64,000 nt of DNA from a virus, in the UHGV virus genome UHGV-0167633. One strand, given 5' to 3'. Every line of letters begins with the position of its first letter. Position 1 is the first letter of the stretch. The notes beneath the pieces are model-generated. The model was given only the letters and a program-made list of their open reading frames with translations. It had not been told where the DNA came from and did not search any database. Of this stretch, positions 11,505 to 61,616 are shown piece by piece. The position numbers and the translations under genes are program-made.

Positions 11505-11617
11505 TTGTCATTTGTTACCGGTCAGTCTACACATTTCAGATACTACGTTAAAACAACTCAAGTGCTTCAAGTAGCACATCGTCATCAACACCCAACCCGA
11601 AGATGCGGAGATAAAAT

Positions 11618-12691
11618 TCAAGCCTTAAGAGGCTTTGTGTATGTTCGTGTAATCCAACCAGTAATAAACTCATCCCCTGATTTAACCTGCACGTAAAGCC
11701 ATTGACGATCTTTCTTATCTAAAATAGCAACAATTGTGTTTTTGCCAATGCATTCAATCACTTCACTATTTAAAGAAGGGCCGACATGCAACCTTACGTT
11801 ATCACCTGTTATAGCTCTAAAATTATTAAGATCCTCCCACTGAATATCTTTATTTTCTTGTGTTAGCTTTTGCTTAGATATTGGCTTATCCTCATTTAGA
11901 GATAGAAGATATGATTCCATCTTGTAAATTTGCGATAATGTCTTTTCTTTTGCATAATCAGTTATAGCGCCAAGCACCACTTGATAAAAAATCCACAGAA
12001 GGAAGATCTGAATAGGAGAAGGAAGCGCCTTAAATGAATCAAAAAACGTCGAACTAGATTTATTAAATCCTTTGTTTTGATGCTCACTTTCGGTATGCGC
12101 TGATTTTATAGAATCATTAGCATAAGCCTGCGCGATAGTAACAAGCCCAAGCTCTACTACTTGCTCTAATAATACACTTCTTGTTTTATTATACTGCTTT
12201 ATTACTTCTTTAATATCTTTGCTTATCTTAATTTTGTAATTTATATTAGAGTGTAATTCTTTAAATACCTCCTCCATATTATTTAAGCCAGCTATCTTAT
12301 TAATGGCTTCTGAGTGTTTTCGTAACGGCATAGCCATTTCAGCTTGATTTTTAATTATTTGAATATGCTCATTTGCATCACTGGGAAAAGCCGCCTGATA
12401 CTGTTTCTGTAAAAATACCATTTGTTCACGAAACTGGTGTGCAATTCTCGTAACTTTTGGTAAAGACTCAAGTTCTTTTCGAAAACAATCATTAATTAAT
12501 TCTTGTTTTTTAACTGTTCCAAACTGTTTAACTAAACTCTTGTAAATATATTCTGAATTTAATAAACCACTTATCTTTTTATGCCTCACTCCTTTAATTT
12601 CATTTAAATAATCATAAAAGGCAGTGCCTTCAGCTTTATTATTAGAGTTAAGCGAAATGTGTTTAATATCCTTCACTTTATTCACCGTCAT
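11618..12691 (-). CDS. membrane protein with C-terminal SH3b-like domain (AT-rich accessory gene)
   Basis: 357-aa ORF; one predicted TM segment (IQIFLLWIFYQVVLGAI); C-terminal beta-rich segment resembling bacterial SH3; strongly AT-rich relative to flanks. Confidence 0.5.
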   Translation of the reverse strand: MTVNKVKDIKHISLNSNNKAEGTAFYDYLNEIKGVRHKKISGLLNSEYIYKSLVKQFGTVKKQELINDCFRKELESLPKVTRIAHQFREQMVFLQKQYQAAFPSDANEHIQIIKNQAEMAMPLRKHSEAINKIAGLNNMEEVFKELHSNINYKIKISKDIKEVIKQYNKTRSVLLEQVVELGLVTIAQAYANDSIKSAHTESEHQNKGFNKSSSTFFDSFKALPSPIQIFLLWIFYQVVLGAITDYAKEKTLSQIYKMESYLLSLNEDKPISKQKLTQENKDIQWEDLNNFRAITGDNVRLHVGPSLNSEVIECIGKNTIVAILDKKDRQWLYVQVKSGDEFITGWITRTYTKPLKA

Positions 12692-13184
12692 CTTGTTTTA
12701 AACACCCGTCATTTTTAGCTTCTGTATAAATACTGGAAATACCATCCAGAGTGAATGATGTGATTCGACTCGAACCGATATATACATCTATGTTTTTTTC
12801 ATTTGTAGATGACACTGCCTTCCAAAATGAATACCATTCCCTACGATTAGGAGCAGTGTTTTGCGTGCCAATATTAAAACTATCCGGGCCAACAATTAAA
12901 GTAATTACATCTGCTTTACGTGATATTGTGTCGCGTGTAGAAAAATCGGCATTCTCTTTTCCTCCGCTTACATACAAATTTCTTCCAGCGATATGATCTT
13001 CTGAACCTTCCCTTGCTCCAGCATCACAAGAAAAGTTAATTGTGTAACCATCGTCATTGGTTGCAGAGATTTCTCTCCACCCTTGCTCACCTCCTACCGT
13101 CCAAACGGTAGAACCTGCCATTGCTGATAATGGCAGAAAAGAGGACATTAATAAAAAGCTATACAATGACTTATACAATTTCAT
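12678..13184 (-). CDS. secreted protein with signal peptide (AT-rich accessory gene)
   Basis: 168-aa ORF; N-terminal signal peptide (MKLYKSLYSFLLMSSFLPLSAMA); overlaps downstream gene start by 14 nt. Confidence 0.5.
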   Translation of the reverse strand: MKLYKSLYSFLLMSSFLPLSAMAGSTVWTVGGEQGWREISATNDDGYTINFSCDAGAREGSEDHIAGRNLYVSGGKENADFSTRDTISRKADVITLIVGPDSFNIGTQNTAPNRREWYSFWKAVSSTNEKNIDVYIGSSRITSFTLDGISSIYTEAKNDGCLKQDDGE

Positions 13185-13272
13185 ATTTTTATCCTTTTGT
13201 TTTTAGATATTATAGGCATAGTCCATATTGTTAGATCCACTATGCCCAGAGAATTTAATATTATTTATTAAA

Positions 13273-13791
13273 TTATGGGGCTACACCCGGCCCCCTAGCT
13301 CGTTCTTCAAGCGTACCCTGTACGTTTTGATGGCGCATTCCTGGGGCATTTCTTATTGAGTCAATGCCATTTCTTCCAACATCTTCTTTATTAACGGCAT
13401 TGCTCGCCACCAGCACACCCCAGCTAGGGATAGCAAAATCAGGAGCGGTTTCGCATGCCTTTACCATATAATCGAAAGTGCTTCGATTGATCTCGTTTGC
13501 GTCGGGATTTAATAGGCGAGAATATTGATATTTAGCATTTTCGTTGGTTGCGACTTTATATAGTTCTTGCTGCACCATCGCTTCAGAAAGTTTAAGACGT
13601 TTCATATCTGACAGTAACTTCTTGCGCATGGATTCGTCTTGACTGACAGCAAAGCCGTAAACGTGCCCAAGGTATTTCGTATAATCGGTACAAATCTCCT
13701 TCACGCTTGATGCTGCATTAACAGTCCCAGCCATAAATAATAACGGTAGTAATAGTTTTCTCATTATAACCTCACCTGCCTTATAACTCAT
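13273..13791 (-). CDS. periplasmic protein carrying a Sit-like C-terminal motif (possible superinfection-exclusion protein)
   Basis: 172-aa ORF with signal peptide; last ~27 aa (NAPGMRHQNVQGTLEERARGPGVAP) closely match an internal Sit segment (NGRGMRREVVQGTLEERARGKGTA); occupies the position of the P1 sim locus. Confidence 0.5.
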   Translation of the reverse strand: MSYKAGEVIMRKLLLPLLFMAGTVNAASSVKEICTDYTKYLGHVYGFAVSQDESMRKKLLSDMKRLKLSEAMVQQELYKVATNENAKYQYSRLLNPDANEINRSTFDYMVKACETAPDFAIPSWGVLVASNAVNKEDVGRNGIDSIRNAPGMRHQNVQGTLEERARGPGVAP

Positions 13792-13860: not shown

Positions 13861-13877
13861 AATGCTCTAATAGATTT
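13861..13877 (+). promoter_or_regulatory. C1-repressor-type operator upstream of immI (Op51-like)
   Basis: aATGCTCTAATAgATTT, 15/17 match to the ATTGCTCTAATAAATTT motif recurring in this window. Confidence 0.5.
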
Positions 13878-14044
13878 GTATTTTTAAGTCGCGAATGCTA
13901 TCTTTTCGCATCATATTGACCTTTTAATCGTTCAGGCTTATAGTTCCGCCGTCGTAGCAAATTCTGCGACCGGGTTTAGCAGCCTGAATGATTGTGCGGA
14001 CAGCCGCAGATATCCGATATTGCGGTATTTTTGTGTCCGTAAAA

Positions 14045-14175
14045 CCGCGTTACGCCCAAATTATGGTGGGGCGTGATGGGGAGGCTTCGGCCTGCTGGTT
14101 TCACAATCGCCAGTCTGCTAACCCCGTCACGTCCTGCCACCTGTTTAGCAGCGGGTAGCAGGTTGTTAAACCTGA
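14045..14175 (+). ncRNA. candidate c4-like antisense regulatory RNA
   Basis: ORF-free, densely hairpinned segment between operator and icd (CGCCC/GGGCG, GGCTTCGGCC tetraloop, CTGCTAA/TTAGCAG, CAGGTT/AACCTG adjacent to icd RBS); position as in P1 c4. Confidence 0.3.
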
Positions 14176-14413: not shown

Positions 14414-15801
14414 AAACACCTCTCGTCACCCGTAATGAAATAGCCGAAGCGATCGCCTTGCATACAATCTGTATGCCGACACGGGAGATCCCCGGCGCAA
14501 TTGCTAACTATTTCATGATAACCAGGCGTTTTTATACCCGAACAGATAAGGCTGTGATCAACAGGCTACTGATAGCCGAGATCAGGGATTATTTGATTGA
14601 ACAAGGACGTCTACGTTACGCAACAGTGGCAGCAGAAATGAGAAAGGAGGCACATAGAATGACCAGTAATAATTTGAATGTTAAAAAACCAGAATCTGTT
14701 GCTTCAGCTACGCCATCACCAGCTGTGAATGTTATCTCCAACACTGGAGACACAATCGACAGCCAGACGCTGTTAAAGATGGTTAATGAGGCGCGCAAGC
14801 TATGTGGGGAAAATGAGATCCGTAATAACGATTTTCTCAATAGAATTAAGGATGAACTTGATGGGGAATTTTACGAAACTTTCGTAAAATCCCATGGCAC
14901 AAGGGCCGGGCGCTCTTTTGAGGTCATAACCATGACCTACAAACAAGCCCTGCGCGTTGCTGCTCGCGAATCGAAAGCGGTCCGCCGTTCGCTACATACC
15001 ATGATTCAGTCATTGGAACCTATAAATGTAGAAAATCAGCCTGATGAAATTCCCGTTCTGGAATGGCAGGGAGTACGCGTCGTGACAACCGAGACTCTTG
15101 CTAGAGGGTATGGCACTACACCTATTCGTATTCAGCAGAACTACAATCGCAATGAAGAACGATTTGTAGAGGGTAAACACTTCTTTAAAATCAAAGGAGA
15201 TGAGATAAAAAGTTTGCGACTATCTTTTAGCGAGTTGCAAATTTCCCCCAAGACCAGATCCTTAATACTCTGGACCGAACGCGGAGCGGCACGCATGTCT
15301 AAGATCGTAGACACAGAGCAAGCGTGGGCATTCTTTGAAAAACTGGAAGACAGCTACTTCCGGCAAAAAGAACAGCAACCGGTCACAATCCCCCAAACAT
15401 TACCAGAAGCTCTACGCCTGGCTGCCGAGTTGGCAGAGCAGAAAATGCAGTTGGAACAACAGCTGGTGGCCGCAGCCCCTAAAGTAGATTTTGCCGACCG
15501 GGTATCAGTGGCTAATGGAATCCTGATCGGGAACTTTGCAAAGGTCGTTGGACTTAAGCAAAACGCCCTTTTCTCATGGTTGCGCCAGAACGGCATTCTC
15601 ATGGCTTTTGGTGCGCGCAAAAACGTACCGCGCCAGCAGTACATTAACGCCGGGTATTTCACGGTGAAAGAAGTGGTGCTGGATGATGAAAATGGCTACC
15701 AGATACGGCTGACGCCCCAATTAACGGGTAAAGGCCAGCAGTGGTTAACTCGCAAGCTACTTGATGCTGGCTTGTTAAAACCGGTGGCGTCCTTGTCTTA
15801 A
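14410..15801 (+). CDS. ant: antirepressor Ant (Bro-N/KilA-C type)
   Basis: 463-aa ORF; C-terminal KilA-C-like block (DFADRVSVANGILIGNFAKVVGLKQNALFSWLRQNGIL) shared with downstream kilA paralog. Confidence 0.75.
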   Translation: MKTPLVTRNEIAEAIALHTICMPTREIPGAIANYFMITRRFYTRTDKAVINRLLIAEIRDYLIEQGRLRYATVAAEMRKEAHRMTSNNLNVKKPESVASATPSPAVNVISNTGDTIDSQTLLKMVNEARKLCGENEIRNNDFLNRIKDELDGEFYETFVKSHGTRAGRSFEVITMTYKQALRVAARESKAVRRSLHTMIQSLEPINVENQPDEIPVLEWQGVRVVTTETLARGYGTTPIRIQQNYNRNEERFVEGKHFFKIKGDEIKSLRLSFSELQISPKTRSLILWTERGAARMSKIVDTEQAWAFFEKLEDSYFRQKEQQPVTIPQTLPEALRLAAELAEQKMQLEQQLVAAAPKVDFADRVSVANGILIGNFAKVVGLKQNALFSWLRQNGILMAFGARKNVPRQQYINAGYFTVKEVVLDDENGYQIRLTPQLTGKGQQWLTRKLLDAGLLKPVASLS

Positions 15802-16039
15802 CGTATTCAGACCAGGATTTGCCATAAATTACAGGCATGTGTACGATATGCCCAACCCTGTTTTTCAGGGGAGGCGCAACGTTATGCGGGGGTTATGAAC
15901 TCCTGGATGCGTAGCCTCCAGACAGAAAAAACCCTCGCTACAACGTTGCATGGAGGCAACCAGCGAGGGCATTCCTTATGTCTGAACAACAAGAGGATAG
16001 CCGCAAGCAGTTGCTGTTGCAAGTATGCGGAGCTTCGTA

Positions 16040-16156
16040 ATGACTCTTCAAAAAGCTTGCAAGTGGATTGTGACCAACATCATTGTTCCTGTCATCATCG
16101 GAGCTTCAAGTTCTGTGTTGGCATCAGTGATTGCCTCACTTCTCCACATTGCATAA
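16040..16156 (+). CDS. candidate small hydrophobic peptide (38 aa)
   Basis: ATG with GGAG 9 nt upstream; MTLQKACKWIVTNIIVPVIIGASSSVLASVIASLLHIA; followed by intrinsic terminator. Not in ORF track (below length cutoff). Confidence 0.3.
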   Translation: MTLQKACKWIVTNIIVPVIIGASSSVLASVIASLLHIA

Positions 16157-16210
16157 CAACATTGAAGGGCGTTAGTTCGCAGTGTAACAGCAGCGCGTTG
16201 CGCCCGAACA

Positions 16211-16246
16211 GGCCACAGGGTAAAACCTGTGGCCTTTTTCGTTTTA
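16211..16246 (+). terminator. rho-independent terminator
   Basis: GGCCACAGG-GTAAAA-CCTGTGGCC followed by TTTTTCGTTTT. Confidence 0.55.
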
Positions 16247-16271
16247 TCCAGCCACAAATCCACATTGAAAA

Positions 16272-16299
16272 ACGCCTTATACAAAAAAACCTGCCAGCA
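16272..16299 (-). terminator. rho-independent terminator (minus-strand reading)
   Basis: CCTGCCAG-CAAA-CTGGCAGG; on minus strand followed by TTTTTTTGT. Confidence 0.45.
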
Positions 16300-16352
16300 A
16301 ACTGGCAGGTTTCTGAGCAGATCGACCAACCCGATCTGGATCGAGTCAGAAA

Positions 16353-16369
16353 AATTTGCTCTAATAAAT
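16353..16369 (+). promoter_or_regulatory. C1-repressor-type operator upstream of kilA (Op53-like)
   Basis: TTTGCTCTAATAAATTT, 16/17 to consensus, 70 bp upstream of kilA. Confidence 0.55.
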
Positions 16370-16440
16370 TTCGTTTTCTAAGTGCAAAGAATCACCATTC
16401 CGAGCTGGTGATTGAAGGTTGATGCAAATTTGGAGAAAAA

Positions 16441-17270: not shown

Positions 17271-17780
17271 ATGCTGGCTAAAGTCACTTTCCTGAGCTGT
17301 ATAACGATGAGCGATTTTACTTTTTCTGGCTATGAATTGGCCTGCTTTGTAACACACTCCGGTCTATCCCGCAGCGCCGGGCATATCCTGTCGCAATGTG
17401 CAAATCTCGCGGCAACAACCAGTGAATACTTCATTCACAAGCCTCACCGCATGATCGCGGCAGAAACTGGTTATAGCCAATCAACCGTCGTTCGTGCATT
17501 CCGTGAAGCTGTAAACAAAGGAATCCTGTCGGTAGAGATTGTTATCGGCGATCACCGTGAACGCCGCGCTAACCTGTACCGGTTTACACCATCCTTTTTG
17601 GCCTTCGCACAACAAGCCAAAAATGCGCTGATTGAAAGCAAATTAAAGATCTCTTCAGCGGCAACCAAGGTTAAAGCTGTTCTCGCTAAGACATTGGCTT
17701 TATTTAATTTTTTATCCACACCCCCATGTCAAAATGATACCCCCTCTCCCTGTCAGGATGACGTGGCAATAAAGAATTAG
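17271..17780 (+). CDS. RepL-like lytic replication initiator (winged-helix)
   Basis: 169-aa ORF directly after kilA; HTH-like segment (SQSTVVRAFREAVNKGIL); start uncertain (alternative ATG at 17307). Confidence 0.4.
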   Translation: MLAKVTFLSCITMSDFTFSGYELACFVTHSGLSRSAGHILSQCANLAATTSEYFIHKPHRMIAAETGYSQSTVVRAFREAVNKGILSVEIVIGDHRERRANLYRFTPSFLAFAQQAKNALIESKLKISSAATKVKAVLAKTLALFNFLSTPPCQNDTPSPCQDDVAIKN

Positions 17781-17846
17781 AAGTCTCAATGTCGAAATAG
17801 AAAAAGATCAGTTTCCGGCGCTGCCGGAACGACCAAACTCAAAAAA

Positions 17847-18113
17847 TTGACTTCATGGATCGCTGGTGCAAAAGCAAAGGCCGACAATCTGCGGTTATCC
17901 AAAAAACGCGCTCAAAAACATGAGTTCCAGCAGAAAGTTGAGGCAGCGGCCCGGAAATATGCTTACCTGAAGAGCAAGCGTTCTCCTGATATTGGCGGGA
18001 TATCAAACTTCGATAATCTGCCGCATTGCATGACGGTAAACGAAGCTCTGGATATGGTCCTATCTACAAGAAAAGAAAAGGAATTTTATATTCCAACTGG
18101 TTTTCGCGGATGA
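17847..18113 (+). CDS. hypothetical protein
   Basis: 88-aa ORF; no motif recognised. Confidence 0.3.
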   Translation: MTSWIAGAKAKADNLRLSKKRAQKHEFQQKVEAAARKYAYLKSKRSPDIGGISNFDNLPHCMTVNEALDMVLSTRKEKEFYIPTGFRG

Positions 18114-18208
18114 TCGCGAATGATAGAATCTTTACGTGTATTTAACGCTCAATACACACTATTTTGTCACCAGTATTATTTTTAACGTTTTTATAGGTAA
18201 CTTTTTCC

Positions 18209-18724
18209 ATGAAAAAAGTAGTTTTAACGGCCCTTCTGGCATGTGCCTTGGGGGTTGCTGGGACTGCCTCCGCATATCAGCACACACTCTCCTTAGACTT
18301 TGCCCAAGGAAGCGCAACGGTTAAAGGCGGAGATATAAAAGATCCAAAAGGCGTGAATATTAAATATCGCTACGAAATGGATTCTACGTGGGGTGGATTA
18401 GCTTCGGTCACTTACGAAAAGTCAAACACAAACCTATGGAATGCCGCCAAAGCCAAGGTTGAGTATGCCTCATTTACTTTTGGTCCGTCATACAGATTCA
18501 ATGAATTAATGAGTGCATACGGCTTGGTGGGTTTAAGCCATGCGGATGCAACAGCAAAACTGAATGGACAGTCATATGCTGGCTTTGGAACCGATTTTGC
18601 TTATGGACTTGGGCTTCAATTTAACCCATCTCCGCAGTTTGCAGTTGATCTCTCGTATGAACGTTCTAAACCAGGTGATCTAAGCAATAGCATTTGGATG
18701 CTTGGTGTCGGTTACCGATTTTAA
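18209..18724 (+). CDS. Ail/Lom/PagC-family outer membrane beta-barrel protein
   Basis: 171-aa ORF with signal peptide (MKKVVLTALLACALGVAGTASA), alternating-hydrophobic beta strands, C-terminal GYRF; followed by hairpin CCCTCTGC/GCAGAGGG. Confidence 0.8.
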   Translation: MKKVVLTALLACALGVAGTASAYQHTLSLDFAQGSATVKGGDIKDPKGVNIKYRYEMDSTWGGLASVTYEKSNTNLWNAAKAKVEYASFTFGPSYRFNELMSAYGLVGLSHADATAKLNGQSYAGFGTDFAYGLGLQFNPSPQFAVDLSYERSKPGDLSNSIWMLGVGYRF

Positions 18725-19035: not shown

Positions 19036-19217
19036 TACACCCGCTGCGGTGTGCTTGGGGCTATCAGCTTCAGGTATTACCCGAAAAGCAGATAGAAGAA
19101 AGCCCCAGTAAACATTATGCGTCCCGCACAACGCTTAACATTAACCGGGGCCATACCTATGCTTAGCGTACTTAGATTAATCCTCTCCTCTGTCAAGGAG
19201 CAAGGAATTTTTTACTG

Positions 19218-19850
19218 CTATGCCGCCTTTCCAGTTATGGATTCTGCGACAAGAACAACCCCATGCTTACTTCGATCCGGATGTTCACTCCATATCTCGG
19301 ATTCAGGAATACTTTCCCCGTCATAGCAAACACGTTCGCCGTCAAACGGGTAATACTGAGCGGCATCGGTGTCGAGGATAAACACTTTTAGCTCGGATGA
19401 GCGACGGGCGATGTGTTGCCAAAGAGCTTTTCCACCTTCGTATTGCTCATTATCACTGAGCAAAACAACACCAGCTTTTGAGGCTACGGTTTCGTAAACA
19501 AAAGTGGCTAAACCGACATCCCGGACGATTCCATCAACCACGATACCTTCAATCTGGGCAACATCGCTATCCTCCCAGAACTTCCTTACCAGTACGCCTT
19601 CAAGCTGCGGGCGACGTTGAAGTTCAAGAGTAGCGACAACCTTATGCCGCATATCACCATCGATAACAGAAGGCGCAGCCTCTATTACAGCTGCAAATGG
19701 GGTTTTGGAATCCCATATAACCTGGTAAAGCACACCCTGGATGGTAACGCCGTCCAGGATCGAAAATCGACGAGCGACAGTACCCGGGGAGTACGACATT
19801 GGAATCACAGCCATTTTAGAGTCCCCCTTTAACAGTACAGGCACAAACAT
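19218..19850 (-). CDS. hypothetical protein (own promoter region and upstream terminator)
   Basis: 210-aa ORF (likely start at MAVIPMSY); preceded by AT-rich region and bidirectional hairpin. Confidence 0.4.
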   Translation of the reverse strand: MFVPVLLKGDSKMAVIPMSYSPGTVARRFSILDGVTIQGVLYQVIWDSKTPFAAVIEAAPSVIDGDMRHKVVATLELQRRPQLEGVLVRKFWEDSDVAQIEGIVVDGIVRDVGLATFVYETVASKAGVVLLSDNEQYEGGKALWQHIARRSSELKVFILDTDAAQYYPFDGERVCYDGESIPESEIWSEHPDRSKHGVVLVAESITGKAA

Positions 19851-19941
19851 CTACCTCAATAATTGTAGTTTATTAGAACATTAATAATCTAACATAAAAC
19901 TCCAGACAATGTTATCGATGCATTTTTATATAAAAAGGTTA

Positions 19942-27745: not shown

Positions 27746-27880
27746 CGAAAGTCATCCTTTATGCTGTATTTTTGAATTTAATTAAAAATGCTGCATAAAA
27801 TAATAATGTATGCGTAGATGCTTGTACATAGCATTCTCTGCATGTTTGGTTCATTTTGCACGATAGAGAGTTGCAAGGAG

Positions 27881-27906
27881 GGCACAAAAAAGCCCCGTTC
27901 AGGGGC
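27881..27906 (-). terminator. rho-independent terminator after the inserted T5orf172-like gene
   Basis: On minus strand GCCCC-TGAAC-GGGGC followed by TTTTTTGTGCC, 8 nt after the stop at 27914. Confidence 0.6.
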
Positions 27907-27913
27907 ATCAGCG

Positions 27914-28723
27914 TTATTTGTTAAGAGCTGCGAATAATCGTTCGAAATCGATAGTATCTATAGCACGCGTTAGCGCCGGAAGTTCAGCCTCAAAGCACCC
28001 GTTTCGATCGTAAAAGAAGGGACCGAAGAGCGAGGCATGTTGGATTCTACTTCGCCCCAGTCCGGACACACAGTTAAGCCCATTACCAGCTAAAAGGCTA
28101 AAAAACTTCTCTGGATTATCGTGGTAAAGCTGGGAATCAATGATGGCGGTTAACTCTTCCATAGGGAAGCACACCCGCCCTGTCTCCCAGGGATATTTAG
28201 TCCGAAGCGTAAACATCGCTTTCAGCAATTCACATTGAGCGCGGATCGCGTCAGGTTCATAGCCAGATATGGAGACATAAGCCACATCCCTCATTCCTGC
28301 GTCATCTTTGAAAGTCACGATAGAAGTAACATCCAGTTCTTTTTCGAAAGAGCGAGCAGCATCTACTGGACGCTGAAGTAAATCATTCGACTTAATTCGC
28401 TCGAGAATCCCTCCCCACATATCATTTAGATATTCGATATGAGCCAAAACCTTATCAAGACACTCTCGTGTAAACCATTCAGTATGCCCGCCACCGGCGC
28501 TTTTCTCCCACGGCGCATTCCAGGGGAAAAAGGTTGCGTGTAAAGCCCGCTCAAGATTAACCATTGCCAAACGCGTACCACGATAGACCCGTGAAAGCGC
28601 AAAATCGGGACTCACTTGTAGCCCTTTAAACCGTGCCAATGGACCACATGAAATGCCGATTTTAAAAGTATCTCCGTTCTCCGGCACCAGAACGTAGAGG
28701 TAGTGTTGTTTCTCTTCTTGCAT
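27914..28723 (-). CDS. T5orf172 / GIY-YIG-like domain protein with unassigned C-terminal domain
   Basis: 269-aa ORF; N-terminus HYLYVLVPENGDTFKIGIS...R...L...GHTEWF fits the T5orf172 pattern; wedged between RepA iterons and parA with own terminator. Confidence 0.5.
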   Translation of the reverse strand: MQEEKQHYLYVLVPENGDTFKIGISCGPLARFKGLQVSPDFALSRVYRGTRLAMVNLERALHATFFPWNAPWEKSAGGGHTEWFTRECLDKVLAHIEYLNDMWGGILERIKSNDLLQRPVDAARSFEKELDVTSIVTFKDDAGMRDVAYVSISGYEPDAIRAQCELLKAMFTLRTKYPWETGRVCFPMEELTAIIDSQLYHDNPEKFFSLLAGNGLNCVSGLGRSRIQHASLFGPFFYDRNGCFEAELPALTRAIDTIDFERLFAALNK

Positions 28724-28755
28724 ATCAATACCACTGCTTGATGAGAACCGCGCAA

Positions 28756-29012
28756 ATGTTGACTATGCGCGAAAGTTAATGTGAATAGTTGACTATGCGC
28801 GATGTGACTACAGTCAAAAGTTGACTGTAGTCGATTTAACTCCACCAAAAATCGACTATGTAAGATATTGTCGGGAGAAACGTTGACTATACGCGATGAA
28901 ATGACCCTAAAAGCCATCTCAATAGCGACTTGCAGAATATTGACGCCAGCAAAAATCCACCAGCGTCAACGAATGTCGCCTATAGTCAACTTCTCGCTAT
29001 CGCATATAGTCA
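28756..29012. repeat. iteron array downstream of repA (incA-like copy-control repeats)
   Basis: About nine copies in both orientations of core TTGACTATRCGCGA / TCGCRYATAGTCAA (e.g. 28756-28770, 28786-28800, 28880-28894, 28972-28989, 28998-29012). Confidence 0.7.
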
Positions 29013-29015
29013 ATA

Positions 29016-29957
29016 TTATGGATTGCGCTTATGGATCTGGAAGCCGATTTTCCTGCCGTTTTTTATCTCTGAAAATTTAAGATATTCAATAGCTTCCAAA
29101 TCTTTCATAGCTTTTCTGATAACGCTATTTTGCACGCTAACGGATGATTTGAGATTAAGCCTTGCTCTAAGGCGCTCAATGCTGACAGGTGCCGGGTTGG
29201 CGGGTAGAGCCTCAAAGAATGTATACAGCACCTTGGCCGTCTCTTTGCGCCCGAGCTTATCCAGCATCTTCAGCTTCAGGATTCGCTTATAGTCAACATA
29301 GTAAAGTTCAGATAGCTGTTTCTGCGGCTGGATCTCGATAACATCAAGCTCGGTATTCAGGCTGCTATATGCCAACAAGTTGACGTTAATGTTATTGAGA
29401 TGACCTTTTGCCGCCGGGAAGCGGAATTTGACAACTGTCTGCTGAATGCGTGTCAGAGAGTCATCAATACTTTTACGGAACGCCTTTGAAAGGCGCTTAC
29501 GTGGATAGCCGCATCGATCGGCAAACTCGGAGAATGGCAGGGTGATTATGCCGTCATCATCAGGTGCGTAGTCAAACAACGCGGAGGTTATGCCCACCCA
29601 CACCTTAAAATCAGTATCCATATCCAGGCGTGGACCATGTATTTCAATTCCCTCATAGCCTTCCTGCTCAACAATTTTGAGGCTTGATAGTTCTTCGGTT
29701 GCGTTCGTTGTGTTTGTAGTAACTGACGATCCGCGACGTAGTGCCACATTGGTAGATTTTAAGGTTGGCACAAACACACCTAAGCGCAACAAAGCGATGG
29801 GTTGTATAGTGCTATTGTTATTGGGTTTCAGGCTGTGGATTTCTCCTGTATTTCCTGCAACTTCTTCAACGCTAAGGAAGCCTTTATTTTCTTCCGGCAT
29901 CGTGGTTTCTCCATATGTGGCGCGGCCTGGCGTCATCTGGATTGCAGTTATCAACAA
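29016..29957 (-). CDS. repA: plasmid replication initiator RepA (iteron-binding)
   Basis: 313-aa ORF flanked by iteron arrays on both sides; winged-helix Rep-type architecture. Confidence 0.85.
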   Translation of the reverse strand: MLITAIQMTPGRATYGETTMPEENKGFLSVEEVAGNTGEIHSLKPNNNSTIQPIALLRLGVFVPTLKSTNVALRRGSSVTTNTTNATEELSSLKIVEQEGYEGIEIHGPRLDMDTDFKVWVGITSALFDYAPDDDGIITLPFSEFADRCGYPRKRLSKAFRKSIDDSLTRIQQTVVKFRFPAAKGHLNNINVNLLAYSSLNTELDVIEIQPQKQLSELYYVDYKRILKLKMLDKLGRKETAKVLYTFFEALPANPAPVSIERLRARLNLKSSVSVQNSVIRKAMKDLEAIEYLKFSEIKNGRKIGFQIHKRNP

Positions 29958-29977
29958 CTGTGAATAGTCAGGCTCTA

Positions 29978-30081
29978 AAATCGCGTACAGTCAATGTTTC
30001 TGTCGCGTATAGTCAACAATAAATCGCGTGCAGTCAACAATAAATCGTGCACAGTCAACATAAAATCGCGTATAGTCAATG
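29978..30081. repeat. iteron array upstream of repA (incC-like origin repeats)
   Basis: Five direct repeats AAATCGCGTRYAGTCAAY at ~21-bp spacing (29978, 30001, 30021, 30042, 30063). Confidence 0.75.
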
Positions 30082-30083
30082 TT

Positions 30084-30191
30084 GATCCCATTTCAGGCCA
30101 GAAATGGCGCGGCTTACAGCGATCCGGGATCTTCTTTGGATCTTCCTAGGTTCTCTTTAGGATCTGTTTATTGGATCTATGCTGTGGATAA
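30084..30191. promoter_or_regulatory. plasmid origin segment: GATC cluster plus DnaA box
   Basis: Six GATC sites within ~95 bp (30084, 30121, 30128, 30139, 30161, 30174) and TGTGGATAA (DnaA box, 30183-30191) directly adjacent to the iterons. Confidence 0.55.
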
Positions 30192-32063: not shown

Positions 32064-32348
32064 CTAACTTACCTGAACCAGGCCGTCTCCGGACGCTACG
32101 GTAGATCCGCATGAAACAGGGTCACCAACGCATACGATCCCTTTACCATTGACGGTAAACCATGCCCTGGTTGATATAGCTTGCCCACCGTGCGTACTGT
32201 TTCCATCGGTATGCTGTGCATATTGCTTGCCATCAACTAACACTTCGACTCCGTTGACTTTAAGTAGTGGTTCACTCTCTACAGGAGGCCTGGATGGGAA
32301 TCCTCCGTGCCCCGAACAAATGCTGTCTTTTGTTGCAATACTTGCCAC
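32064..32348 (-). CDS. small Gly/Cys-containing protein (PAAR-like?)
   Basis: 94-aa ORF; repeated NG.V / GDPVSCG-type motifs; weak resemblance only. Confidence 0.3.
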   Translation of the reverse strand: MASIATKDSICSGHGGFPSRPPVESEPLLKVNGVEVLVDGKQYAQHTDGNSTHGGQAISTRAWFTVNGKGIVCVGDPVSCGSTVASGDGLVQVS

Positions 32349-32427
32349 GTCATCACCAATTATTTGCTCTGATTTTCGTTATTTTAACTCAGGTTATTTG
32401 TGGTCTACATGGCTGTTACCTATTGCA

Positions 32428-32444
32428 AAATTGCTCTAATAAAT
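32428..32444 (+). promoter_or_regulatory. C1-repressor-type operator
   Basis: ATTGCTCTAATAAATAT (16/17) upstream of the rdgC-like/dmt operon. Confidence 0.55.
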
Positions 32445-32445
32445 A

Positions 32446-32802
32446 TTGTTTTTTATGTCGTATTTTCGGTACCATTCAGCCATCGCCCTTCAATGGGCAT
32501 TTGTTTGGAGTCGTCAGATGCAGATGGAGCTAATAAGCCGCAAAGAGTTCGATAGCCGTGTAACCTGCGGTGAACTCGACAACTTGCAGGCTATCAAGGT
32601 GAAAGAAGGCTTTTGCCTCATTGGGAATCAGAGCGGAACAAATCGCGTTTTTATGCTTCGCCGTACGGATTTGAAGCCATTTGTCTGGAAGAACGAAATT
32701 GGTCCCAGCTCATACGCTCAAACGAGGGGGTGCCACAACCTGGCCTTTTTCTACAAAGACGAGCTTTCTGTGGTTGATATTCAAGGGTTACAACATGTTT
32801 AA
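32446..32802 (+). CDS. hypothetical protein
   Basis: 118-aa ORF upstream of rdgC homolog; start uncertain. Confidence 0.3.
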
Positions 32803-33700: not shown

Positions 33701-35961
33701 AAGAGCTGTGCTATGGATCTGTTTGCAGTGGAATTGAAGCCGCGAGTGTTGCCTGGGAACCGTTGGGTATGCGTCCGGCGTGGTTTGCTGAAATCGAGCC
33801 TTTTCCATCTGCCGTTCTTGCGCACCGCTGGCCCCATGTCGCCAACCTTGGCGATATGACAAAACTTGCCAAAAAAGTCCTGGCTGGGGAAATCGAATCC
33901 CCTGATGTGCTCGTCGGGGGAACACCTTGTCAGGCATTCAGTATCGCTGGATTACGTGGTGGGCTTGATGATGAGCGTGGCGCGCTAACTTTAAAGTATG
34001 TGGAGCTTGCAAATGCAATTGACGACAAACGGGCTGAGTCATTTCTCAAACCGACAGTTATCGTCTGGGAAAATGTCCCAGGAGTCCTGTCATCGGCAGA
34101 TAACGCCTTCGGATGTTTCCTTGCCGGATTGGCTGGAGAAGATGCGCCATTTGAACCAGGTGATCGACCTGAATCAGGAAAAAGTAACGCGTTCTGGCGG
34201 TGGGATGGCAAAACCGGTTGCCATGCTCCAAAGTGGCCGCAGTGTGGTTGTATTTATGGACCGCAGCGAAAGGTGGCCTGGAGAATCCTTGATGCCCAAT
34301 ACTTCGGAGTGGCACAACGACGCCGACGCGTGTTTGTTGTCGCAAGTGCTCGAACAGACCTCGATCCCGCAACGGTACTTTTTGAGTTCGAAGGCGTGCG
34401 CCGGAATATTGCGCCGAGCCGAAAAAAGAAGGAAATCGCTTCCGCCATTATTGCAAATGGCGCTGCAATCAGTGGCGAAAGCCTAAATCCATGCCTACAC
34501 GCTGACATGCCACCCGGTATGAAATCGACGAAAGCCGTAAACGCTTTCAGGATGGCAGCATTTGGGGAATATATTGACGATGAAACCGCATCGACAGTAA
34601 AGGCAAGAGATTTTAAAGATGCCACTGACCTTGCCGTTTTTAGCAGCACAGGAGCAGGTTTTTGGTCAGAAGGGCATGGTACATTGCGGGCACGTGAGCA
34701 AGAAAGCCATGAGCATCTTGTTACATTGGCTTTTCCTGAGCGTATGAGCGGTACACAACATGCTGCAACTAAGAATACTTCACCATCTCTAATGGCTAAA
34801 AATCCAACAGCTGTTTGCTATGAAGTAAGAAACGCAGAAGTAGCTGTCCGCCGTCTTACCCCTATCGAATGTGAAAGGCTGCAAGGTTTTCCTGATGGGC
34901 ATACGTTGATCCCGACGGAAAAGCGTAAAAAAGTTAATTCAGATGAACTGGCATATCTTCGCAATCACTATCCAGATTTAAGCGAAGAAGAGGCCGCGAT
35001 GTTTGCAGCTGACGGACCGCGTTACAAAGCGATCGGCAATAGTATGGCGATACCAGTAATGCGCTGGATTGGCGAGCGGATTACCAAGGCTGCATGTCGG
35101 CAGAATGAAGGGCGTGAAACAAAAGAGCGAAAAGTTAAACCTGCGGCAGAATTCGAACGGTCCATATTCAAATGGGCTGGTGGAAAATTTGGTGTTCTGG
35201 AACAAATCTTTCGCTATTTGCCAGAAGGGAAGCGCCTAATTGAACCTTTTGTCGGTGGCGGATCTGTCTTCACGAATGCCGGATACCAGGAAAATCTGCT
35301 AAATGATGTGAATGCTGACCTGATTAACTTTTACAAGACTCTGCAACGCGAGGCGCATTCACTTATCACTCTGGCACATCGTTTCTTCCAGGACTACAAC
35401 ACACAGGAAGGATACCTGGCAGTACGGAATGCGTTTAACAAACAAGTCTATGATGATTTACATCGCGCAGCGGCGTTTTTGTTCCTGAACCGACATTGTT
35501 TTAACGGATTGACGCGTTACAACCAGGCCGGTGAGTTCAATGTCGGTTATGGGAAGTATAAAACTCCGTATTTCCCATTACAGGAGATGGAAGCCTTCCT
35601 CGGTGCGGAAGGGCGGTCTGAGTTTGTATGCGGTGATTTTGCAGCGGTGATTGAAGCTGCCGGAGAAGGAGATGTCATCTTTTGCGATCCGCCGTATGAA
35701 CCGCTTCCAAATACAGAGGGATTCACGAACTATTCCGGTCATGACTTTAAGTTTGAAGAGCAAAAACGCCTGGTGTCTCTGTTGACGGATGCTCATCGTC
35801 GAGGTGCAAAGGTTCTCATTACTAACAGTGGCGCGCCAAACATCAGAGAGCTTTATCATGACAGTGGCTTCAGAGTGGAACCTCTTTTTGCCAGACGTTC
35901 TGTGTCTTGTAAGGGGGACACTCGAGGTGTAGCTCATGACGTTCTGGGCATATTGCTCTAA
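33697..35961 (+). CDS. dmt: bifunctional DNA methyltransferase (N-terminal C5-cytosine MTase fused to C-terminal Dam-type N6-adenine MTase)
   Basis: 754-aa ORF; C5-MTase motif [12 protein letters not shown] near N-terminus, ENV motif, and DPPY (CDPPYEPL) in C-terminal half. Confidence 0.85.
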
Positions 35962-35968
35962 TAAATTT
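35952..35968 (+). promoter_or_regulatory. C1-repressor-type operator (perfect 17-mer)
   Basis: ATTGCTCTAATAAATTT overlapping the dmt stop codon, upstream of the tRNA/tciA/ban region; embedded in 16-bp palindrome CTAATAAATTTATTAG. Confidence 0.6.
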
Positions 35969-36143
35969 ATTAGTGTAATATCGCCTCAATGAATCGTGAT
36001 TTATAGAGCGATTTAGCTGTTAGCCGCGACAGGCGCGGCGGCAAGTATGGCGGGGTAGTGACTCCTTCCCCATCATGACGCCGAGTTGCCAGGTTGACCA
36101 TACGCCTAAGTGGTAACACCGAAGTGCGTTACGAGCTTCCAGT

Positions 36144-61528: not shown

Positions 61529-61544
61529 AATTGCTCTAATGTAT
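61528..61544 (+). promoter_or_regulatory. C1-operator-like site
   Basis: ATTGCTCTAATGTATTG (13/17) at stop of preceding gene. Confidence 0.35.
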
Positions 61545-61616
61545 TGCTATTTCTTTAATCGATGGTATTATATTCCGCGTTGATTAGTTGACATGGGCTA
61601 ATCAGTAGGTGACAGG

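Follow-up and report, generated by a model that had tools for sequence, protein, structure and literature searches.

The 17-bp sites scattered over the window, which here means the whole 64,000-nt stretch of DNA that was analysed, are very probably operators for C1, the immunity repressor of P1, on a P1-like phage-plasmid, as judged from their sequence and their positions. The operator system itself has been described before, and the P1 reference genome annotates it down to the base, so that the complete operator map obtained here, which comprises 11 sites and two candidate sites and lacks one ancestral site, adds little beyond correct annotation of the window, although such a map is of use for predicting which accessory genes would be silent in a lysogen of a P1-like plasmid. 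The residual novelty is modest and lies in the two candidate sites (12160 and 19866) and in the idea that modules swapped into the element join the C1 regulon.

Detection and mapping of the operator sites

Both strands of the whole window were searched with the consensus ATTGCTCTAATAAATTT, and 10 matches with no more than 3 mismatches were found, whereas dinucleotide-preserving shuffles contained 0.37 matches on average and 2 at most. The exact starts and strands of these matches are those of the operators in Table 1 other than Op83. To score degenerate sites, a matrix was built from the 17 C1 operators annotated in P1 (AF234172) between 32 and 94.8 kb; the position-weight-matrix scan, which had been suggested as a check along with the original prediction, gave 12 window matches scoring at least 15 in comparison to 0.37 expected. 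Op83, located between pmgM and pmgN, is more degenerate than the 10 consensus matches and was recovered by the matrix. Together the 11 dispersed operators cover 48 kb of the window. All nine sites of the original prediction turned out to be real, including the perfect consensus match at 35952, and the starts given for 13861, 35952, 46178, 49802 and 49851 were exact, but those given as 16353, 32428 and 61528 were 2 nt too low, that given as 51942 was 1 nt too low, and Op72b and Op83 had been missed.

Table 1. Operators, candidate sites, non-P1 segments and selected genes of the window. P1 positions refer to AF234172; "bases as P1" is counted over 137 bases of each operator neighbourhood.
Feature	Window position	Strand	Sequence	P1 position	Bases as P1	JK004 counterpart	Remark
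Op51 / Oc4	13861-13877	+	AATGCTCTAATAGATTT	48140-48156	131/137		
Op53 / OrepL	16355-16371	+	TTTGCTCTAATAAATTT	49810-49826	134/137		
Op68 / Odmt	32430-32446	+	ATTGCTCTAATAAATAT	65145-65161	129/137	24822	
Op72a / Obana	35952-35968	+	perfect consensus	68667-68683	135/137		
Op72b / Obanb	35963-35979	-	ATTACACTAATAAATTT	68678-68694 (minus strand)			
Op82 / O26	46178-46194	-	ATTGCACTAATAATTTT	78528-78544	136/137		
Op83 / Oppp	47085-47101	-	CATGCACTAATTAATTT	79435-79451			identical to P1; matrix score 18.7
Op86a / OpmgRa	49802-49818	+	ATTGCTCTAATAATTCC	82152-82168		67021	
Op86b / OpmgRb	49851-49867	-	ATTGCTCTAATAAAAAA	82201-82217			
Op88 / OpmgT	51943-51959	+	ATTGCTCTAATAAATAT	84293-84309		64882	
Op94 / Olpa	61530-61546	+	ATTGCTCTAATGTATTG	89904-89920		53260	
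Possible weak second arm of Op83	47074-47090	+	CGTGAAATAATAAATTA				score 8.1, chance level
Candidate C1-binding site	12160-12176	+	CTTGCTCTAATAATACA				antisense inside SH3-domain gene (11618-12691, minus), non-P1 segment
Candidate operator	19866-19882	-	AATGTTCTAATAAACTA				non-P1 segment, 16 nt upstream of 210-aa cargo ORF
Ail/Lom-family outer-membrane beta-barrel gene	18209-18724	+					
sok-like antisense RNA	19049-19222						RF01794, 62 bits
210-aa ORF	19218-19850	-					no Pfam match
T5orf172/GIY-YIG-like protein	27914-28723	-					in segment 27847-30097
Divergent Rep3-type initiator	29016-29957	-					in segment 27847-30097
Non-P1 segment	1-1461						
Non-P1 segment	6630-7239						
Non-P1 segment	11516-13625						
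Non-P1 segment	14993-15388						
Non-P1 segment	18083-19944						
Non-P1 segment	27847-30097						
Non-P1 segment	52834-58323						
Non-P1 segment	58664-59235						
Non-P1 segment	62072-63405						

The sites had been predicted to lie always between genes or at operon boundaries, and this placement held for all 11 operators, which are outside annotated coding sequences apart from overlaps of at most 10 nt: Op72a covers the final 10 nt of dmt, and Op88 shares a single base, the last one, with pap. Gene placement was judged by two annotations, those of P1 and of a plasmid closely related to the window; a greedy open reading frame map, which had been considered for the intergenic statistics, was dropped for its spurious frames over promoter regions (e.g., 15895-16422 and 32149-32439). 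The first of these, a frame of 175 aa with no Pfam match, spans PkilA and Op53, and no gene is annotated there in the closest plasmid relative. About 480 bp between ant and kilA (15788-16283) are absent from P1.

Within the long structural-gene blocks of the window, the scan gave no match to the P1 matrix above the chance range, which fits direct control by C1 of early and regulatory operons and indirect control of late genes via lpa. One site at the ban/dbn junction, 40299(-), with a score of 12.4, was set aside as background, because the score is in the chance range and the P1 counterpart at 72649 is unannotated. An exact 15-mer scan of IMG/VR yielded, among the matches listed, mostly stretches with single matches, which were taken as chance, and among these matches only contigs with two matches 3522 bp apart, the distance from Op68 to Op72a, looked P1-like.

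Correspondence with phage P1

By megablast, the window falls in the P1 group (Punavirus), with 96-98% identity to P1, P7, JL22, RCS47 and others, and by blastn it is collinear with P1 (AF234172) from 36.3 kb to 91.0 kb at 95-98% identity, interrupted by the non-P1 segments of Table 1. All 11 sites coincide, at collinear positions, with features annotated in AF234172 as protein_bind sites of the phage repressor C1, and 125 to 136 of 137 bases in each operator neighbourhood are as in P1, which bears out the identity proposed for the sites. The two elements share the consensus, positions, orientations and neighbouring promoters and genes of the operators; nine of the eleven 17-mers are identical, with one base change each in Op51 (A13G) and Op88 (C16A). 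The asymmetric consensus that the original prediction gave for P1 C1 is also the published one, since the operator consensus given in the literature is exactly ATTGCTCTAATAAATTT (PMC8546580). According to the same source, P1 C1 binds 22 dispersed operators that control, among others, RepL and Lpa, and Coi, Lxc and Ant1/2 are modulators of the C1 system (PMC8546580).

The genetic contexts named in the original prediction, i.e., upstream of immI (c4-icd-ant), kilA, the dmt operon and the ban operon, were correct as well. Op51 is located upstream of c4 RNA, icd and ant1/2 (immI), and the C4 RNA with its targets was found just downstream, at 13938-14144. Op53 overlaps the -10 hexamer of PkilA, and the genes under its control in the P1 annotation are those of kilA-repL, for lytic replication. 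Op68 abuts the -35 hexamer of Pdmt, the promoter of the uhr-hrdC-dmt operon. Op72a and Op72b are inverted and overlap with an 11-bp offset, forming a bivalent ban operator identical to Obanab of P1. The possible weak second arm of Op83 has the same 11-bp offset and a geometry as in Op72ab and Oc1ab, while P1 annotates Op83 as monovalent. Op82 is within the control region of the divergent gene 26 and pmgL, Op88 is upstream of pmgT and a co-directional cargo array, and Op94 overlaps with its 3' end the -35 hexamer of Plpa, from which the late-gene activator is expressed.

One operator of P1 has no counterpart in the window. This is Op55 (Orlf), and the collinearity of the window with P1 ends 37 bp short of it; Op55 is missing because its segment was replaced, and no operator-like site was found in the window sequence past the repL stop. 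In the opposite direction, the window differs from P1 in having operator-like sites at 12160 and 19866, both in segments absent from P1.

The c1 gene, coi and lxc are outside the window, which stops inside pacA at P1 coordinate 91040, about 3 kb short of c1 (93231-94082 in AF234172), so that the presence of a cognate repressor has to be judged from relatives. A tblastn search with P1 C1 gave a homologue in 717 plasmid records, and in 700 of them it was at least 95% identical to P1 C1, by which the element as a whole very likely encodes a P1-type C1. The records with high identity include plasmids that carry the cargo segments of the window (e.g., CP056621, NZ_CP057567, NZ_CP100671 and NZ_CP117679).

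Conservation in a distant relative

The only divergent match for the lpa region was Cronobacter phage JK004 (MZ188976), which has a GC content of 54% and is about 70% identical at lpa. Its annotation calls every gene hypothetical and lists no operators; these were identified in the present analysis. Over the whole JK004 genome, 23 matrix matches scored at least 12 in comparison to 1.1 expected, and 20 of the 23 lie essentially in the non-coding 10% of the genome (binomial 1e-17), a restriction to intergenic DNA that is seen in this distant relative. Positional homologues of Op68, Op82, Op83, Op86a/b, Op88 and Op94 were identified, and sites precede the homologues of lpa, pmgT, pmgR and uhr. 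The counterpart of Op88 is identical in 17 of 17 positions and begins with the final base of the pap homologue, just as in the window, and a cluster of operators flanks an 852-nt c1 homologue.

For seven homologous sites, the operators of the window and JK004 are identical at 98 of 119 positions in comparison to 276 of 630 positions in the flanks, a contrast that is somewhat overstated since the flank identities are ungapped. A matrix made from the JK004 sites alone has the same consensus ATTGCTCTAATAAATTT and finds all but one of the 11 operators of the window. Differences from the window and P1 were also observed: the flanks have largely diverged, a T is tolerated at position 5, and upstream of the ban homologue lie two operators in direct orientation, spaced by 28 bp (29881-29925), where P1 has the overlapping inverted bivalent pair. 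The conservation indicates that the architecture of the C1 regulon is stable across distant P1-like phages.

Promoter overlap and the proposed mode of repression

Because the 137-bp neighbourhoods are so nearly identical to P1 (125-136 of 137), the promoter hexamers annotated there carry over to the window. The operators touch the -35 hexamers of P2c4, Pdmt, P1ban, PpmgR, P2pmgT and Plpa and the -10 hexamer of PkilA, overlaps which are transferred from the P1 annotation, where several of these promoters are only "predicted". The TTGCTC of the operator is the annotated -35 hexamer of P1ban (in Op72a), of the predicted PpmgR (in Op86a) and of P2pmgT, the TCTAAT is the -10 hexamer of PkilA, and at their 3' ends Op51, Op68 and Op94 overlap or adjoin the -35 hexamers of P2c4, Pdmt and Plpa, respectively.

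From the sequence we infer that C1 binds to and represses from the operators of the window. In the proposed mechanism, C1 would bind each asymmetric 17-bp site, and since most of these sites overlap or abut a sigma-70 -35 or -10 hexamer, the bound repressor would sterically exclude RNA polymerase, operon by operon. In the lysogen, C1 would silence c4-icd-ant (the antirepressor operon), kilA-repL (lytic replication), the operons of dmt and ban, a number of pmg operons, and lpa, whose product activates every late promoter; once Coi or Ant inactivates C1, all of these would be released together.

In phage lambda, the CI operators (OR/OL) are repressor sites which overlap promoters and by which lytic functions are held off in the lysogen. 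The operators of P1 resemble them in that they are repressor sites over promoters that silence lytic functions in the lysogen. The lambda operators, however, are palindromic, bound by dimers and clustered at two loci. Those of P1 are asymmetric, number about 22, are scattered genome-wide and each control their own operon (PMC8546580).

For Op82, Op83 and Op86b, the regulatory target assigned in the P1 annotation is not firmly established, and it is possible, though we consider it somewhat doubtful, that a subset of the C1-bound sites (these three, the 12160 site and possibly others) is auxiliary and serves as loop anchors, roadblocks or a sink for free repressor. Such a role would be consistent with the geometry of Op86a and Op86b, an inverted pair 49 bp apart round a hairpin that is kept in JK004, with the location of Op83 downstream of the predicted PpmgN -10 hexamer, with the orientation of Op82, which points away from pmgL, and with the intragenic and antisense placement of the 12160 candidate. 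Extra plasmid-borne operator copies reduce the probability of lysogeny (PMC8546580), from which it follows that titration matters. On the other hand, the P1 annotation gives Op82, Op83 and Op86b a controlled gene each, and the auxiliary-site idea would in any case refine rather than replace the explanation of the sites as C1 operators.

A second alternative would make the motif a promoter element or the site of a factor other than C1, such as a phage-specific -35/UP element or the target of a host protein, and takes its appeal from the constant location of the motif in promoter regions and from the TTGCTC and TAATAA within it, which resemble -35 and -10 hexamers; these hexamer-like parts are 1 bp apart rather than 17, however, so that the motif is no promoter in itself. 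A Lpa-dependent late promoter of P1 consists of a -10 hexamer and a conserved 9-bp -22 box. The late promoters of the P1 annotation (LPs, LPsit, LP23, LP26, LPpmgL, LPhot and LPpac) are at other coordinates, and none of them was found at the coordinates of any operator 17-mer. The homologous P1 sites, moreover, are annotated as C1-binding, with dedicated GenBank entries cited for Op68, Op88 and Op94, the entry M95666 has a feature named "c1 repressor binding site", and C1 footprints on the P1 counterparts have already been reported according to the annotation, all of which makes a non-C1 site very improbable. Even less credible is a chance origin of the matches: both the motif and intergenic DNA are AT-rich, but 10 matches were observed against 0.37 in the shuffles and the 17-mer is kept at homologous positions in the 54% GC relative with diverged flanks, so this explanation can practically be dismissed.

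With the sites taken as C1 operators, the pair Op86a/Op86b shows a further structural feature. The two operators flank a hairpin with an 11-bp stem followed by a T-run, and the fold energy of 49802-49867 is -26.9 kcal/mol (z = -8.9). In JK004, the inner hairpin between the two counterparts differs in sequence yet still pairs, and the 49-bp spacing is kept. The hairpin may be a conserved terminator set between two operators.

Candidate sites in non-P1 DNA

The candidate at 12160 has a score of 17.6, equal to that of Op55 of P1, and its 13-nt core is identical to that of Op86a; about 0.03 matches at such a score would be expected in the approximately 16 kb of non-P1 DNA when scaled from the number expected in the matrix scan. 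The site may well bind C1. It was absent from alleles of the SH3-domain gene that are 68-72% identical, and these divergent alleles thus give no sign of selection on the site.

The score of the candidate at 19866 was 12.2 with the P1 matrix, a value that chance can explain, in comparison to 16.4 with the JK004 matrix, in which a T is tolerated at position 5; the latter is about the score of Op94. The site is conserved in 17 of 17 positions in two P1-like relatives, one of which has several differences from the window in the flanks close by; nearly all copies among P1-like plasmids are 95-99% identical, leaving little divergence to compare. A copy of the 210-aa gene was also found on a non-P1 plasmid, where the homology breaks exactly at the 19866 site and the candidate operator is absent. 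Taken together, these observations are no more than suggestive of a C1 operator for the 210-aa cargo gene.

Cargo genes and their possible relation to C1 control

In the segment 18083-19944, Op55-rlfA-rlfB of P1 is replaced by the Ail/Lom gene, the sok-like RNA and the 210-aa ORF. No plus-strand terminator-like element was found between repL and the Ail/Lom gene, and a strong one is located past the Ail/Lom gene. The cargo array at 52.8-58.3 kb, with genes for DUF1382, DUF551 and two Ead/Ea22 proteins among others, lies behind Op88 and runs in the same direction as pmgT, and only weak terminator-like sites were found between Op88-pmgT and the array. With terminators absent or weak behind the two operons, read-through from the Op53-controlled kilA-repL promoter into the Ail/Lom gene, and from the Op88-controlled promoter into the Ea22/DUF1382/DUF551 array, is plausible. 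In the map of the window, neither the T5orf172/Rep3 replicon segment nor the IS605 tnpB insertion is behind an operator-controlled promoter, and the same is true of the SH3/phosphatase-like cluster, which holds the internal 12160 site and starts next to Op51.

More generally, foreign modules swapped into P1-like phage-plasmids could gain C1 operators of their own, as 19866 and 12160 might exemplify, while the Ail/Lom gene and the Ea22/DUF551 array would stay silent until derepression lets transcription read through into them. We offer this as a tentative idea that is rather less likely to hold than to fail; if true, accessory genes would be brought into the C1 immunity regulon.

Other features of the window

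The repL gene (17271-18116) has an in-frame TAG at codon 170 (17778-17780), where P1 has AAG, and its remainder is in frame and about 95% identical. Without suppression of this stop, lytic replication may be defective; a sequencing error is another possible origin of the TAG. At 11516-13625, the sim (superimmunity) genes of P1 are replaced by a minus-strand cluster whose products are a 357-aa protein with an SH3 domain, one of 168 aa, and one of 172 aa for which the match to PTP-like phosphatases is borderline; several alleles exist at this locus, only 68-72% identical among P1-like plasmids. The repA/incA plasmid replicon of P1 is replaced at 27847-30097, and plasmids related to the window are typed as IncHI1B rather than IncY. 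The lpa stop is followed directly, still upstream of the late promoter of pacA, by a 1.3-kb insertion absent from P1 (62073-63404), which encodes on the minus strand a 393-aa IS605-type OrfB/TnpB protein with HTH_OrfB_IS605, OrfB_IS605 and Cas12f1-like TNB domains.
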